Below are positions 1-12,592 of a stretch of 64,000 nt of DNA, piece by piece. The notes below the pieces were generated by a model. The model searched no databases and was not told the origin of the DNA. It saw only the letters and a program-made list of their open reading frames with translations. How positions within the stretch are numbered: the first letter of the stretch is position 1; every line of letters begins with the position of its first letter. Source of the stretch: an uncultured Clostridia bacterium (GTDB lineage: Bacteria > Bacillota > Clostridia > TANB77 > CAG-508); assembly GCA_948676835.1 (NCBI GenBank), contig CAPOZU010000001.1:58633-122632 (forward strand), given 5' to 3'. The position numbers were made by a program, and so were the translations under genes.

Positions 1-848
1 TATTTTTTGTATTTCCTAAAACTTCTATTTTACACTCATTTAATATTTTAATGATATTCGCTATTTTATTTATATGATTTATTGCATCTTTATTATCTGC
101 ATATTTATATACCTTGTCTTTTCTAATAATAGTTTTAATTCTATTCTCTTTTTTTCTTGTAATACTAAAACTTACAAATCTAATATCTTCAAAATTTTCA
201 TTTTTTGATACTTCTATAAAAAATGAATTTGCAAAAAAAGGAAACATTTTTTTATCTGCACTTACTAATTGCTTATAAGCATCTCTTTCTGAAAAATTCA
301 AAAATTCTTCTTCACCACAAAATGTTAATACTCGTGCATCTATATTATCATTATTAGGTAAAAAATCATCTGTATATATTACATTAGTTATTTCATAATC
401 TGGTAATGGATAATAGAATTTATATTTTAGATTTAAATTTTCTAGTATTTTCTTTATTTGTGATAAACTCAAAATATTATCATTAGACTTAACAATACTA
501 TCAAAAGCTTCTGCATCTAAATTTATTCTATCTCCTGCGAAATATTTCATTGCAAATTTATTCTTCATAGCTAAAAGAATTTTTCCATTTTCATTTAATT
601 TATTCGTAGCACATTCTAATAAATCTTTTATTTCATCTAGACTTAATTTTTCAAAAGTTCCAATTAATGTAATATAATCAAATTTATCTGTTATTTCTTT
701 AAGGTTTTCTGTAACCTTAACTTTACTTGTTTTTAATTTTAATTCTTGCAGAATATAACTATTTTCTCCTACTTGCAAAACAGTATCTTCTTCTTTAATT
801 GGATACCATGATATAATATTTTTTTTAAATTCAAGTAATTCTTCCATA
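1..848 (-). CDS. SAM-dependent methyltransferase-like protein; C-terminus cut by window start, N-terminus at 848
   Basis: Minus-strand open frame runs to position 1 with its ATG at 846-848 (MEELLEFKKNIISWYPIKEED...VLQVGENSYIL...). The glycine-containing motif resembles class I methyltransferases, and the gene sits at the edge of the Wzm/Wzt export locus. Confidence 0.45.
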
Positions 849-865
849 CTTATTTCCTTTTTATT

Positions 866-2140
866 TTAAATTTTAGAAATTTTAATTTCTGAATCTAGTC
901 TAACTAAACCAACTGTATTTTTAGTTGTTATTATTTCAATTAAAAGCGCATCATATTTTCTACTTAATGCCTCTAAATCTCCTTGAAGATTATATTTAGT
1001 ACAACTAAATGAAACTGTATATTTTCCAGGAGCTATAGGAATTTTTTGAGTAAATTCTGCAATTGCAGTTTCTCCAGCTTCAAATTTTCCAGTAATAACT
1101 TTCTCTATATTAGTATTTGTTCCAGCAACATCTTTTCCTGCAAAATCTTTTATTGTTAAAGTAAAAATTGGATCTTTAACTTGAGTATAAAACTTCACTT
1201 TAGATTTAAAAGTTATTGTATCTTGATTATCAAAAACATTCACTAAATTTTCTTCACTATCAAAACTTCCATAATCTATAACTTCTGCTTCATTATTTCC
1301 ATATTCAATCATGTTTGGATTTTTGTTTAATTTATCCTTCCAAAATTCAGCACTATTATTTTCATTTTCTTTTTTTATAATTTTCTTTGTTTCATCTTCA
1401 TCTGGATTTATTCCAACAATTATTTTTTTATATCTATTTACTCCATCTTTAACAGATCCATCGAATGTTTTTCTACCATTTTCTAAGATAATTGCTCTAT
1501 TACAATTTGATAAAACATCTGCAACATTATGTGTAACAAATATAATTGTTTTTCCTTTTTCTTTAAATTGTTCAAATTTTTTAAAACATTTTAATTGAAA
1601 TGCCATATCTCCAACAGATAAAACTTCATCTACTATAAGAATATCTGGATCAACATTTATTGCACAGGCAAAAGCTAAACGAGCAAACATACCTGATGAA
1701 TATGTTTTTACTGGTTGTGACAAATGCTCGCCAATGTCTGCAAATTCAATAATTTCTTTTTCTTTTTGTTTTATTTCTTCATCTGAAAGCCCCATAACTT
1801 GTCCATGTTGATATATATTTTCATATCCTGTAAGTTCTGGGTTGAAAGCAGCTCCAAGTTCTAAAAGCGAACTTATTTTTCCATTAACTTCTATTGTTCC
1901 AGAGCTCTGAGTTGCTACACCAGTAATCATTTTTAAAAGAGTAGATTTTCCTGCTCCATTTTTCCCAAGTATACCAAGAACTTCTCCCTTTTTTAATTCC
2001 AAATTTAAATTATCTAAAGCTCTAAAAGTATCATGTTTTTCATATCCTGGAATAATTGTTTCAAACAATCTATCTTTCTTGCTTTTAAACATTTTATATT
2101 CTTTTACTAAATTGGTAATTTTTATTACAGTATCACTCAT
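866..2140 (-). CDS. wzt: Polysaccharide/O-antigen ABC exporter ATP-binding protein (Wzt/TagH type) with an extended C-terminal domain
   Basis: Walker A GKNGAGKST and the ABC signature LSSGM are present. The 424-aa length implies an extra C-terminal domain of about 170 aa, as in Wzt carbohydrate-binding modules. Confidence 0.85.
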   Translation of the reverse strand: MSDTVIKITNLVKEYKMFKSKKDRLFETIIPGYEKHDTFRALDNLNLELKKGEVLGILGKNGAGKSTLLKMITGVATQSSGTIEVNGKISSLLELGAAFNPELTGYENIYQHGQVMGLSDEEIKQKEKEIIEFADIGEHLSQPVKTYSSGMFARLAFACAINVDPDILIVDEVLSVGDMAFQLKCFKKFEQFKEKGKTIIFVTHNVADVLSNCNRAIILENGRKTFDGSVKDGVNRYKKIIVGINPDEDETKKIIKKENENNSAEFWKDKLNKNPNMIEYGNNEAEVIDYGSFDSEENLVNVFDNQDTITFKSKVKFYTQVKDPIFTLTIKDFAGKDVAGTNTNIEKVITGKFEAGETAIAEFTQKIPIAPGKYTVSFSCTKYNLQGDLEALSRKYDALLIEIITTKNTVGLVRLDSEIKISKI

Positions 2141-2162
2141 ATAATAGATATCCTTTCGAAAT

Positions 2163-10108: not shown

Positions 10109-10116
10109 TTTTCCTC

Positions 10117-11361
10117 CTAAGTATTTTCTTTTTGTGGAAGATTATTTTCTTTTTCTTTTGCTGTTAATAATAATACTATAAATAAAATCCATAAAATAAT
10201 TTGTGATATAAGATTTGCAATTGTGAATCCTAATATTCCAATATTTCTACTTAAAAAGTACGCTAAGCCAGCAAATGCTGAAAAATAAACTATATATGTA
10301 ATTACAAGTTTGTTTGTATTACTATATTTTAATAAAACTGACTTTATAAGCGCAGATGCTGTACCAAATGCTGTAGTTAATGAAATCGGAATAATTAATA
10401 CAATAGCTTCTTTGGAATAAATATATTCATGATATAAAATCCATAATGCTATATAACTACATGGTATTGTTAACAGCGTTACTAATATTATAACTGGAAT
10501 ATTAGAAAATAAAGTCATCTTTAATATTTTTGTTTTGCTTTTTTCATCACTTGCATTTGATACCCATGACAAAATAACATTTGACATCGGATTTGTTACC
10601 AAGCTTGCAACTTTTGCCATCGAATTAACTGCATAATACATTGCAATTGCTGTAGCACCAAACATTGGATATATTAAAAATCTATCAAAATAATTCATTA
10701 AATTTGTTAAAAATGATACAAATCCTAATTGAAAAAATTTTTTTACTGTTTCAAACATTTCTTTAGTTTTAGTAAATTTCATTTCCAAAATATCTGAGTT
10801 TTTTAATGCATAAAATACAGATATTAATTCTGGAATAAATAATAAAACATACATATTCTTACTTGTTACAAATACTACTAAACCTATAATAATTCCTACT
10901 AAATATAAAATATTTTGTATTATTACTTTTTTATATGTTTGTCTTAATCTATAAAAACAAGTAGCATATAATCTAATATTTGCAAGTAATATTGTAATTG
11001 TAAATATTATACTTCCAATCACAGAATATTGTAAATATATGAAAAGTGGAAAAACTATAATAGCAATTATTGGAGATAATAGTACCAAAATTCTAGTAAA
11101 GTCACCAATAATATTTCTAGATTTATATTCACTATCTCTCACAAGTCTTACATTTCCAAGTTCTCCTCCTGTAGTATTACATACCACATTTAAAATTGAT
11201 ATATATAATACAATATTTGCGTATATATCTTCTGAAACCATTTTATCTAAAATTGGAAGCAAAATAATTTGCTGTGAAATTATATATATTCCGAATCCAA
11301 TCATATTTAAAATCATATCTGATGCAAAGTTTTTATACTTTTTTAAAAAATTTTTTATCAT
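10117..11361 (-). CDS. wzx: Wzx-type oligosaccharide flippase (polysaccharide biosynthesis protein, MOP superfamily)
   Basis: 414 aa with about 12 transmembrane helices. Length and topology are typical of Wzx/RfbX proteins. Confidence 0.65.
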   Translation of the reverse strand: MIKNFLKKYKNFASDMILNMIGFGIYIISQQIILLPILDKMVSEDIYANIVLYISILNVVCNTTGGELGNVRLVRDSEYKSRNIIGDFTRILVLLSPIIAIIVFPLFIYLQYSVIGSIIFTITILLANIRLYATCFYRLRQTYKKVIIQNILYLVGIIIGLVVFVTSKNMYVLLFIPELISVFYALKNSDILEMKFTKTKEMFETVKKFFQLGFVSFLTNLMNYFDRFLIYPMFGATAIAMYYAVNSMAKVASLVTNPMSNVILSWVSNASDEKSKTKILKMTLFSNIPVIILVTLLTIPCSYIALWILYHEYIYSKEAIVLIIPISLTTAFGTASALIKSVLLKYSNTNKLVITYIVYFSAFAGLAYFLSRNIGILGFTIANLISQIILWILFIVLLLTAKEKENNLPQKENT

Positions 11362-11392
11362 ATTTTTATCCTTTTATTTATAAATAGAAATT

Positions 11393-12592
11393 TTAAATTT
11401 CTAATATGTTTTTTATAGCAATATATGTATTTTTTCTATCAAATTTATCTTCTGCTAATCGTCTGTTATTAGAACCTAATCTTTTTCTTAGTTCTTTGTC
11501 ATTATATAATATTTCAATTTTTTCAGCTAGTTCTTCTGCATTTCCATTCTCAACATTAAAACCAATTTGATAGTCTTCAACTAACTTTCTATACTCTACA
11601 CTCTCTTGAGTATTTATAACAGGAAGTCCACTTGCAGCATAATCCCCAACTTTATTTATTATACTTCCTGCTGATCCAGCCCTTATAGGATTTACTGCAA
11701 TATCACAAGAACATAATTTTCCTACCATTTCTCCATAGCTTAGTCTTCCAGTAAAATCACAATTTACTTCTTTTTCTTTACCATATGCTTCAAAAACTTC
11801 TTGTAATGGACCATTTCCCATTACAGCAAATAATATATTTTTTATTCCTTTTTCATTTAATATATGTATACTATCAATTACACATTTTATATCATAACTA
11901 TTACCTAAAGTTCCTATATATGCTATTCTTATTACATCATCAAATGGTACAATTTCGAATTCTTTTTTTACTTTATCAAAATTATCTAAATCTGTTCCTA
12001 AAAAAACACTTAATTTTTGTTCATATTTTTTATTAACAGTACTTGCTCTATCTGCATAAGTATTTGAAACTGCCACAATTGAATCTGCTCTAGAATATAT
12101 ATAATCTGCTGACTTTTTCATTGGATAAAATATTAAATTACTAATTACTAGTATGTTAAATACCATTTTAAATGCTTCTGGCCATAAATCTTGAACATCT
12201 ATTATAAATTTAATATTATTTTTTTCTGCATATTTACTTGCTACTTTTGCAACTGCAAGAGATGGAACTGCTGCATATATAATATCTGGTTTTTCAATGG
12301 TTTCTAAATATTTCTTAACATTTTTTGCAAATATATGATGTGAATAAAATCGTTTTAGTGATACATTCTTTTTATATCCTGGTTCCTTTATTAAAGTTAT
12401 ATCATAATCTAAATTTAATGCTGAATCATTTTCTTGTCTTTGAATTTTATTTTCATGCCAAAAACTTGAAGTTATTAATTCAACATCATATTTTTCTTTA
12501 TCTAATAAATCTATTATATATGTGAATCTACTATTTCCATTTTCCCATGGTAATGAAACAAAATTTGCAATTATAAGAATTTTCTTTTTCAT
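11393..12592 (-). CDS. Family 4 glycosyltransferase (GT-B fold)
   Basis: MKKKILIIANF... is a typical GT4 N-terminus. The E-x7-E-like C-terminal region (GLPVINTQ...EDYQIGF) supports the call. Confidence 0.75.
   Translation of the reverse strand: MKKKILIIANFVSLPWENGNSRFTYIIDLLDKEKYDVELITSSFWHENKIQRQENDSALNLDYDITLIKEPGYKKNVSLKRFYSHHIFAKNVKKYLETIEKPDIIYAAVPSLAVAKVASKYAEKNNIKFIIDVQDLWPEAFKMVFNILVISNLIFYPMKKSADYIYSRADSIVAVSNTYADRASTVNKKYEQKLSVFLGTDLDNFDKVKKEFEIVPFDDVIRIAYIGTLGNSYDIKCVIDSIHILNEKGIKNILFAVMGNGPLQEVFEAYGKEKEVNCDFTGRLSYGEMVGKLCSCDIAVNPIRAGSAGSIINKVGDYAASGLPVINTQESVEYRKLVEDYQIGFNVENGNAEELAEKIEILYNDKELRKRLGSNNRRLAEDKFDRKNTYIAIKNILEI

Follow-up and report, generated by a model that had tools for sequence, protein, structure and literature searches.

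Here, we provide comparative genomic evidence that a 64,000-nucleotide stretch of DNA from an uncultured Clostridia bacterium (contig CAPOZU010000001.1; hereafter the window, numbered from its first letter) holds the central part of a locus, about 40 kb in size, for a cell-wall polysaccharide. In the reading that we prefer, with a rough probability of 0.55, the locus joins a conserved module for a capped polymer exported by an ATP-binding cassette (ABC) transporter with a separable Wzx/Wzy cassette, in a layout like that of rhamnose-rich wall polysaccharide loci. An earlier sequence-only reading of positions 1-12592 had proposed a mosaic of ABC-dependent and Wzx/Wzy-dependent machinery, and the gene types that it named are all present, on the minus strand and where it had placed them, with scores far beyond chance except for Wzx. 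The locus is larger than that segment, as its upstream edge lies at about 27.8 kb and it continues for at least 10 kb past the window start. The window scanned for it has a guanine-plus-cytosine (GC) content of about 23%, and from position 1 to about 39.6 kb all sizeable genes but one are on the minus strand.

Presence of the endospore genes SpoIVA and GerA in the window identifies the host as an endospore-forming Firmicute. It is an uncultured gut Clostridium related to Candidatus Scatovivens, and the product of the locus is a wall or surface glycan, not a lipopolysaccharide (LPS) O antigen. A scan with one genome per species yielded 207 relatives, from which 80 loci were kept, all from metagenome-assembled genomes of gut Clostridia, Candidatus Scatovivens among them. 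Together with the window's own contig (L001; ENA ERZ14237740 NODE_120), which an exact-match search with Wzt had recovered, these made 81 loci for comparison. The export and capping genes stand at the start of the window:

3143-3943, minus strand: Wzm ABC-2 permease, 266 amino acids (aa), with about six hydrophobic segments (ABC2_membrane E=1.2e-13)
2163-3125, minus strand: family 2 glycosyltransferase (GT2) of 320 aa between wzm and wzt (Glycos_transf_2 E=7.7e-28)
866-2140, minus strand: Wzt ATPase, 424 aa, with the nucleotide-binding domain at about 1391-2140 and the Wzt_C module (aa 277-415) at 896-1312
2-847, minus strand: N-terminal 282 of the 530 aa of a putative chain terminator, the remainder lying beyond the window start (L001 11294-12886)
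263-847, minus strand: methyltransferase-fold domain of the terminator (aa 1-195), with the kinase-like domain beginning in 2-262

The claimed Wzm permease is borne out by its ABC2_membrane match; the ribosome-binding site and the gene call on the ENA contig favour its start at ATG 3943 over the GTG at 3964 with which the mechanically called open reading frame (ORF) begins. It pairs in the same operon with a Wzt that carries a Wzt_C module, and only the GT2 gene, which shows weak likeness to TuaG/EpsE/PglI and is kept in 70 of the 81 loci, separates wzm from wzt, an order conserved in relatives. In Wzt, ABC_tran covers residues 42-173 (E=8e-24) and Wzt_C residues 277-415 (E=1.3e-32, profile positions 2-143 of 143; Pfam). 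The best PDB match of the whole protein is full-length Aquifex aeolicus Wzt (8dku/7k2t, E=6.5e-72, in two stretches), while the last 165 residues alone match the E. coli O9a Wzt domain 2r5o over almost their entire length (E=1.9e-6), with Aquifex modules next (E about 2e-5 to 5e-5). The C-terminal extension of about 170 aa that had been noticed in the letters is, by its Wzt_C and 2r5o matches, a genuine carbohydrate-binding module (CBM), and the lack of likeness to Wzt_C modules that had been named as a way for this claim to fail was looked for and is not what we see. Of the 81 loci, 72 contain a Wzt, and in essentially every one of these the module has its full length. It diverges much faster than the ATPase domain (42-79% vs 70-93% identity across loci), which lends indirect support to a predicted role in recognizing a capped chain end. 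We also considered Wzm/Wzt as a TagGH teichoic-acid exporter and rejected it: the best NCBIfam matches are to TagH, but they cover the nucleotide-binding domain only and stay far below the cutoff. The Wzt_C module favours an exporter of the O-antigen type.

The gene beside wzt proved to be more than the methyltransferase that it first resembled. The partial ORF 2-847 matches methyltransferase models below threshold only (Pfam E=0.002-0.006), and the ENA contig shows it to be the start of a 530-aa protein, in which a structure model and fold searches distinguish a domain with a methyltransferase fold, a kinase of the APH-like kind and a putative coiled coil. Homologues of the protein belong to uncultured Clostridia, and distant full-length ones (35-40% identity) carry clear Pfam domains of S-adenosylmethionine (SAM) methyltransferases. 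In the alignment, motif I reads VLQVGEN-SY in the subfamily of the window vs the canonical VLEIGAGLGE in the distant homologues, the subfamily is short of about 20 residues after the strand that follows motif I, and the E/DxGxGxG loop of an active SAM-dependent methyltransferase is not found in the window's protein. The kinase domain has its catalytic residues, as the signature D363-x4-N368 and the following D380-Q-E-W are invariant across 55 homologues. Mean identity of the N-terminal domain (0.46) is like that of the kinase (0.48). The C-terminus is a long helix with a conserved SWKITKPLR motif at its end; in the AlphaFold2 model, long helices span 456-506 and 509-527, predicted at moderate confidence (pLDDT 53-82).

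The genomic company of this protein fits a terminator. Of the 81 loci, 72 have it together with Wzt, 67 with Wzm, 70 with the small GT2 and 78 with double-GT2 genes; it is thus linked both to polymerizing glycosyltransferases (GTs) and to a CBM-bearing Wzt. In L003, L017 and L032 (around 11540-11600) the terminator frame extends past SWKITKP towards the adjoining double-GT2 homologue; the lineage of the window has a stand-alone terminator and one double-GT2 gene fewer. A profile of the kinase domain found 1687 cluster representatives among 1.84 billion proteins, the long members of which carry GT2x2, RgpF or WbsX modules; a cluster look-up for these long members gave no names. Direct homology to the E. 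coli terminator WbdD was tried as well and dropped, because phmmer and the 55-sequence profile against PDB returned generic methyltransferases only. A role of the 530-aa protein as terminator of the ABC-dependent polymer is well supported by its predicted domains and conserved linkage.

The proposal that the neighbour of wzt supplies the cap holds insofar as this gene is the likely source; it is, though, a terminator with a methyltransferase fold, a kinase and a putative coiled coil that has lost its SAM loop, not a plain methyltransferase. From the lost loop, and from an N-terminal domain as conserved as the kinase, we infer a cap placed by the kinase only, with the methyltransferase fold kept as a scaffold. 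The cap would then more likely be phosphate than methyl, the kinase and not a methyltransferase being the credible capping activity. At the upstream edge of the locus stands one further gene of the methyltransferase kind:

27881-28471, minus strand: 196-aa Methyltransf_3 O-methyltransferase

This enzyme is probably a housekeeping one (TrmR/YrrM-like) but could conceivably supply a methyl cap separately.

Upstream of wzm, the locus carries GalE, two membrane proteins and the Wzx/Wzy cassette:

4495-5496, minus strand: GalE-like UDP-hexose 4-epimerase (Epimerase / GDP_Man_Dehyd E about 1e-55)
5499-6254, minus strand: 251-aa membrane protein with four transmembrane segments and a soluble C-terminal domain, without a family match
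6278-7390, minus strand: DUF6077 polytopic membrane protein, 370 aa (PF19554 E=1e-83)
7387-8709, minus strand: Wzy_C protein 1, 440 aa, polymerase- or ligase-like, with about ten transmembrane segments (Wzy_C E=4.8e-16)
8690-10108, minus strand: Wzy_C protein 2, 472 aa (Wzy_C E=1.7e-12)
10117-11361, minus strand: candidate divergent Wzx/MOP-type flippase, 414 aa, polytopic (Polysacc_synt sub-threshold)
11393-12592, minus strand: GT4 glycosyltransferase (Glycos_transf_1 E=7.9e-18)
12617-20446, minus strand: rest of the cassette, with FemAB-like, DegT-like, GNAT, ATP-grasp, Bac_transf, DegT aminotransferase and PglF/CapD-like dehydratase genes
16768-17400, minus strand: the small Bac_transf phosphoglycosyltransferase among these (E=7e-65)

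The two Wzy/ligase-like proteins that had been recognized both lie above the Wzy_C threshold, and are paralogues that are 37% identical over their full length. Since the Wzy_C domain is common to polymerases, WaaL ligases and O-oligosaccharyltransferases, their activity is not readable from sequence. For the flippase that had been named, a polytopic 414-aa protein does stand at the site, while its Polysacc_synt match (22.3 bits; 27.5 bits in an orthologue) stays below the cutoff of 28.2. Of its homologues, one carries PF01943, another bears the JGI name 'O-antigen/teichoic acid export membrane protein', and those listed below the nearest relatives are 63-72% identical. Bac_transf supplies the initiating phosphoglycosyltransferase expected of Wzx/Wzy assembly. 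Scans of the larger ORFs in 1-59 kb of the window revealed no chain-length regulator of the Wzz/PCP, CpsBCD or CpsCD type, and no LCP gene was seen among the window ORFs scanned.

Comparison across the 81 loci separates the two sets of genes. The ABC module is a core conserved across the 80 related genomes and in most loci stands without a Wzx/Wzy pathway in the nearest 10 kb. Wzx and Wzy_C genes are confined to 10-11 of the 81 loci, each belonging to one of the closest relatives. In L032, DUF6077 directly follows rmlB, and in L017 and L071 about 1.3 kb without a detected homologue of a cassette gene lies between the two; in all three, DUF6077 is followed by the 251-aa protein, galE and wzm, the cassette being absent between. 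Segment 7387-20446 behaves as a separable cassette between rmlB and DUF6077, which may have been gained here or lost elsewhere. Within the cassette, Wzy_C varies in copy number across loci (0, 1 or 2) with Wzx and DUF6077 kept, and the identities in related loci are 42-56% for Wzy_C, 65-78% for Wzx and 76-83% for GalE.

DUF6077 and the 251-aa protein behave as a single functional unit, in all likelihood a split enzyme, of the ABC module. They form a single ORF of 613-697 aa in six loci (L032, L054, L066, L071, L072, L078), and in L054, L066, L072 and L078 they lie between wzm and wzt; these fusions, together with the position among ABC-module genes, assign the unit to that module. The invariant residues of DUF6077 (D132-D133, R251/Q254-G255-K256) are predicted to face outside. 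A profile of the pair against PDB sequences found no solved relative, and our literature search found no paper that mentions DUF6077. By analogy with the polytopic transferases of comparable loci, we regard the pair as a candidate extracytoplasmic transferase.

The window was also read for signals that divide the locus into transcription units:

24990-24963, minus strand: promoter upstream of rmlD, a perfect sigma-70 consensus (TTGACA-16-TG-TATAAT, 12/12, extended -10)
20673-24913, minus strand: rmlB, a 249-aa ORF, rmlC, rmlA and rmlD, for dTDP-rhamnose synthesis (rml names from translations)
20659-20619, minus strand: hairpin after rmlB, 17 bp with a T-run, a predicted terminator
20561-20533, minus strand: promoter-like site ahead of the PglF-like gene
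4449-4486, no strand assigned: GC-rich hairpin with a 17-bp stem and T-runs on both sides (dG -26.3 kcal/mol)
4145-4435, plus strand: orphan ORF of 94-96 aa, with 43-46% GC vs about 23% in the genome
4008-3980, minus strand: promoter-like site upstream of wzm (TTGATA-17-TG-TATAAT, 11/12, extended -10; a consensus match only)

Three units are predicted from these: rmlD to rmlB, the PglF-like gene to galE (taking in Wzx, both Wzy_C genes, DUF6077 and the 251-aa protein), and wzm onward. The hairpin at 4449-4486 is likely a bidirectional terminator for galE and the orphan ORF, and nearly all relatives have a strong hairpin in their galE-wzm spacer, lacking the plus-strand ORF. The idea of one contiguous minus-strand array does not survive, since a terminator, a plus-strand ORF and a promoter part GalE from Wzm and the terminator is conserved in relatives. 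Nor is the locus simply two neighbouring clusters: the separate transcription that had been named as counting against a mosaic is indeed predicted, but the cassette is nested inside the ABC-pathway locus, with the rml genes upstream of it and DUF6077, the 251-aa protein and GalE downstream. The claim that both export routes share one locus, for two glycans or a hybrid, stands in that the mosaic is real; the routes fall into separate predicted units.

How might the parts work together? The ABC-pathway backbone would be made inside the cell and, judging from the linked rml genes, would contain rhamnose. The double GT2 proteins are candidate backbone polymerases with a presumed rhamnosyltransferase activity. 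The 530-aa terminator, a kinase on a putative coiled coil, would cap the growing end, probably with phosphate; the C-terminal module of Wzt would recognize the capped end, and Wzm/Wzt would then export the chain. In the cassette, the small phosphoglycosyltransferase would start a short unit on an amino-dideoxy-hexose, the GT4 enzyme would extend it, the Wzx-like flippase would turn it outward, and one or both Wzy_C proteins would polymerize or transfer it. The second product could then decorate the exported backbone outside the membrane, with the split DUF6077 and 251-aa protein as the candidate transferase. Such a hybrid is the most likely relation between the two products when judged by analogy, as the conserved Wzx, the conserved DUF6077 unit and the variable Wzy_C parallel the pattern of Lactococcus lactis and of the enterococcal polysaccharide antigen (EPA). 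A narrower proposal, that gut Clostridia of this clade make a two-chain wall glycopolymer under quality control of the O-antigen kind, in which the terminator acts as a kinase only and leaves a bare phosphate on the backbone end as the mark that Wzt reads while DUF6077 with the 251-aa protein represents a new transferase family grafting Wzx-flipped units, is unlikely to hold in full.

Several points weigh against this scheme. The Wzx assignment, made from sub-threshold matches, is that of a candidate. The phosphate cap and the rhamnosyltransferase activity of the GT2 proteins are features that we infer. WbdD came up neither in a single-sequence phmmer search, nor when the family profile was run through hmmsearch, nor among the top 50-60 matches of the fold searches, and the likeness to ORF6 of Klebsiella O7 discussed below is one of architecture and shared structural neighbours. 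No initiating enzyme of the ABC pathway lies within the sequence examined, and no enzyme joining the two products was identified. DUF6077 and the 251-aa protein also occur in loci without Wzx/Wzy within 10 kb, so they are not specific to the cassette, and a conserved terminator stands between the cassette operon and the wzm operon. Finally, two cassette genes and one polymerase-type GT are frameshifted, and this strain may therefore be losing parts of the pathway.

The frameshifts are as follows. The DegT-like gene, resembling pyridoxal-phosphate enzymes (13641-14685, minus strand), carries a +1 frameshift near 14195 that leaves ORFs of 168 and 191 aa; the break falls at ...SLRKWFPIAS / GGIAVNMN..., where the sequence is AGT-C-GGAGGA and the frame is regained once the C is taken out. 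The FemAB-like gene (12617-13600, minus strand) is broken near an A-run, its N-terminal part (...TPYGYGGPVI) lying in another frame upstream of a 214-aa ORF, and the same split (78 and 208 aa) is called in the ENA contig. At L001 13263, about 1.1 kb past the window start, an extra C (GAT-C-GGAAGT vs GATGGAAGT in L002) splits a polymerase-type GT (about 645 aa), the gene for which is unbroken in L002, L003, L008, L012 and L017. The look-up folded 19 further places, mostly with the same neighbouring proteins, into the ENA contig with the split ORFs. There are hints that the frameshifts are real and not assembly errors. The context T-C-GGA is common to the frameshifts at L001 13263 and in the DegT-like gene, and could reflect a shared error mode or a mutational hotspot.

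The alternative that survives best is that two independent glycans are made side by side, each anchored alone and with nothing in common but the precursor genes rml and GalE: a wall polymer that is capped and exported by the ABC transporter, and a separate Wzx/Wzy heteropolysaccharide, capsule-like or teichoic-acid-like. We consider this somewhat unlikely. The three units into which predicted terminators and promoters split the region would suit it, as would a cassette that has its own phosphoglycosyltransferase and promoter and behaves as a presence/absence module, next to an ABC module that in most of the 81 loci manages without a Wzx/Wzy pathway within 10 kb. Yet the cassette sits inside the locus, is predicted to be co-transcribed with DUF6077, the 251-aa protein and GalE, and is translationally coupled to DUF6077 (the stop of Wzy_C protein 1 overlaps the DUF6077 start by four bases), although DUF6077 and the 251-aa protein evolutionarily belong to the ABC module. 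The window scans also gave no chain-length regulator, tyrosine kinase or LCP ligase, which are usual in Firmicute capsule loci, and known loci of the same layout make one joined polymer.

Protein O-glycosylation of the S-layer-glycan type, in which one or both Wzy_C proteins would act as WsaB- or PglL-like O-oligosaccharyltransferases and attach to a surface protein either the capped chain after its export or the flipped unit, could draw on the occurrence of Wzy_C in the predicted WsaB/WsfB transferases and PglL/PilO, on the Geobacillus slg gene combination (PMC2943079), on a cassette without Wzz and on a weak match of Wzy_C protein 1 to the O-linking transferase TfpM (E=3e-5), but it is very improbable, as that match (23 bits vs a cutoff of 600) is not significant for membership, around the locus the window showed neither an S-layer gene nor a tetratricopeptide-repeat partner, the Wzy_C genes keep company with Wzx and, like polymerases, diverge quickly, and most relatives have the ABC module without an adjacent Wzy_C gene, so that export is independent of Wzy_C. 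It is this last point that places O-glycosylation below a decorated backbone.

The preferred reading, a capped backbone decorated by the cassette product, finds its closest precedents in wall polysaccharides that are rich in rhamnose (Rha-CWPS). In the wall polysaccharide of L. lactis (CWPS), an ABC-exported rhamnan receives a side chain that is flipped by Wzx, polymerized by WpsI and attached by the GT-C enzyme WpsJ, with flippase and transferase conserved and the polymerase variable. In Enterococcus faecalis EPA, the rhamnan receives a teichoic-acid decoration made by a Wzx/Wzy pathway that starts with an undecaprenyl-phosphate sugar transferase like the initiators of Wzy-dependent polysaccharides, and a layout with two pathways is accepted as the model for wall polysaccharides rich in rhamnose (all PMC9574508, PMC7188991). 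The mosaic is therefore not novel in itself, with precedent in both systems. Like these, the locus of the window combines rmlABCD, an ABC-dependent backbone and a variable module; features of such modules are a Wzx flippase, a Wzy-like or GT-C polymerase, Gtr-type three-component decoration genes and polytopic membrane transferases. It differs in its host, a spore-forming Clostridium instead of an ovococcus, and in a backbone module with an O-antigen-style terminator (a kinase on a putative coiled coil) and a CBM-bearing Wzt. The polymerase candidates are double GT2 proteins, not RgpA/B/F, RgpF appearing only in distant terminator fusions; the candidate transferase belongs to the unstudied family DUF6077; and no LCP or TagO-like gene lies within the sequence examined.

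For capping, the nearest parallels are O antigens. ORF6 of Klebsiella O7 combines a methyltransferase, an unannotated kinase (closest structure AmiN), a coiled coil and two GT2 rhamnosyltransferase modules; it puts methyl-phosphate on rhamnose, and its partner Wzt bears a CBM (PMC11231755). The window's terminator shares with the K. pneumoniae O7 protein the order of a methyltransferase fold, a kinase near small-molecule kinases such as AmiN, and, as predicted, a coiled coil; its relatives run on into two GT2 modules as ORF6 does, and linked rml genes and a Wzt with a CBM complete the likeness. In contrast to O7, the system of the window belongs to a monoderm and its product is not an LPS O antigen, and in this lineage the terminator is stand-alone and has lost the SAM loop and about 20 residues, which makes methyl-phosphate unlikely. 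WbdD is a further methyltransferase-kinase-coiled-coil terminator (PMC3482155). As in E. coli O9a and K. pneumoniae O3, where a stand-alone coiled-coil methyltransferase-kinase protein caps and the cap is then read by the C-terminal module of Wzt, the window's terminator is a separate protein, and the best solved relative of its CBM is the O9a module 2r5o; unlike that of WbdD, its kinase resembles APH and choline kinases rather than eukaryotic-like ones, and its predicted coiled coil is much shorter (about 70 aa).

Among Gram-positive systems, the slg clusters of Geobacillus hold wzm/wzt, rml, a capping methyltransferase, a Bac_transf-type initiator and a Wzy_C transferase (PMC2943079). Those of Geobacillus stearothermophilus and Paenibacillus alvei resemble the locus of the window in an ABC-dependent capped rhamnan, wzm/wzt, rml, a Bac_transf-type initiator and a Wzy_C protein, but as described in a review they have neither Wzx nor a second pathway; their cap comes from the methyltransferase domain of WsaE, and an S-layer gene lies nearby, of which none was seen in the window.

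Of all features of the locus, the pairing of terminator and CBM tells us most, given that a review describes the termination of Rha-CWPS as unresolved, with only a hypothetical sugar cap by RgpE. This clade offers a readable answer for Gram-positive rhamnose-rich wall polysaccharides, namely a terminator and a cap-reading transporter as in Klebsiella and E. coli O antigens, and it shows natural variation in the SAM loop (kept or lost), in the terminator (stand-alone or part of a polymerase fusion) and in the number of Wzy_C genes (0, 1 or 2). DUF6077 gains its first functional context. The hosts are common uncultured gut residents, whose wall glycans probably serve as phage receptors and host-facing antigens, by analogy with Rha-CWPS. 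As the mosaic idea is already textbook knowledge for enterococci and lactococci, the finding is useful and unsurprising.

The orphan ORF at 4145-4435 has a good ribosome-binding site at its second ATG and its own GC-rich terminator, and lies antisense between the two operons. It is present in L001 and L002 only, and a search of 5.8 billion proteins gave two protein clusters, both near-identical (100% and 88%); no Pfam, NCBIfam, phage or Rfam match was obtained. An Rfam search of the whole window found no match, which means that the GC-rich galE-wzm spacer does not correspond to any known RNA.

Orthologues of the window's rml genes occur in the related loci. Two membrane proteins stand within and beyond this group:

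21658-22407, minus strand: 249-aa single-pass membrane protein with a coiled-coil-like stretch, between rmlC and rmlB
25040-26470, minus strand: DUF7657 polytopic membrane protein (PF24677 E=3.7e-32)

The 249-aa protein belongs to no family, and none of the 80 related loci encodes a homologue of it; rmlC stands right beside rmlB in L017. In many related loci, homologues of DUF7657 lie downstream of GtrA and a GtrB-like GT2, which suggests a three-component set for extracytoplasmic glycosylation; L001 16684-20441 belongs to the same observation. L001 carries a 717-aa GtrII-like protein as well.

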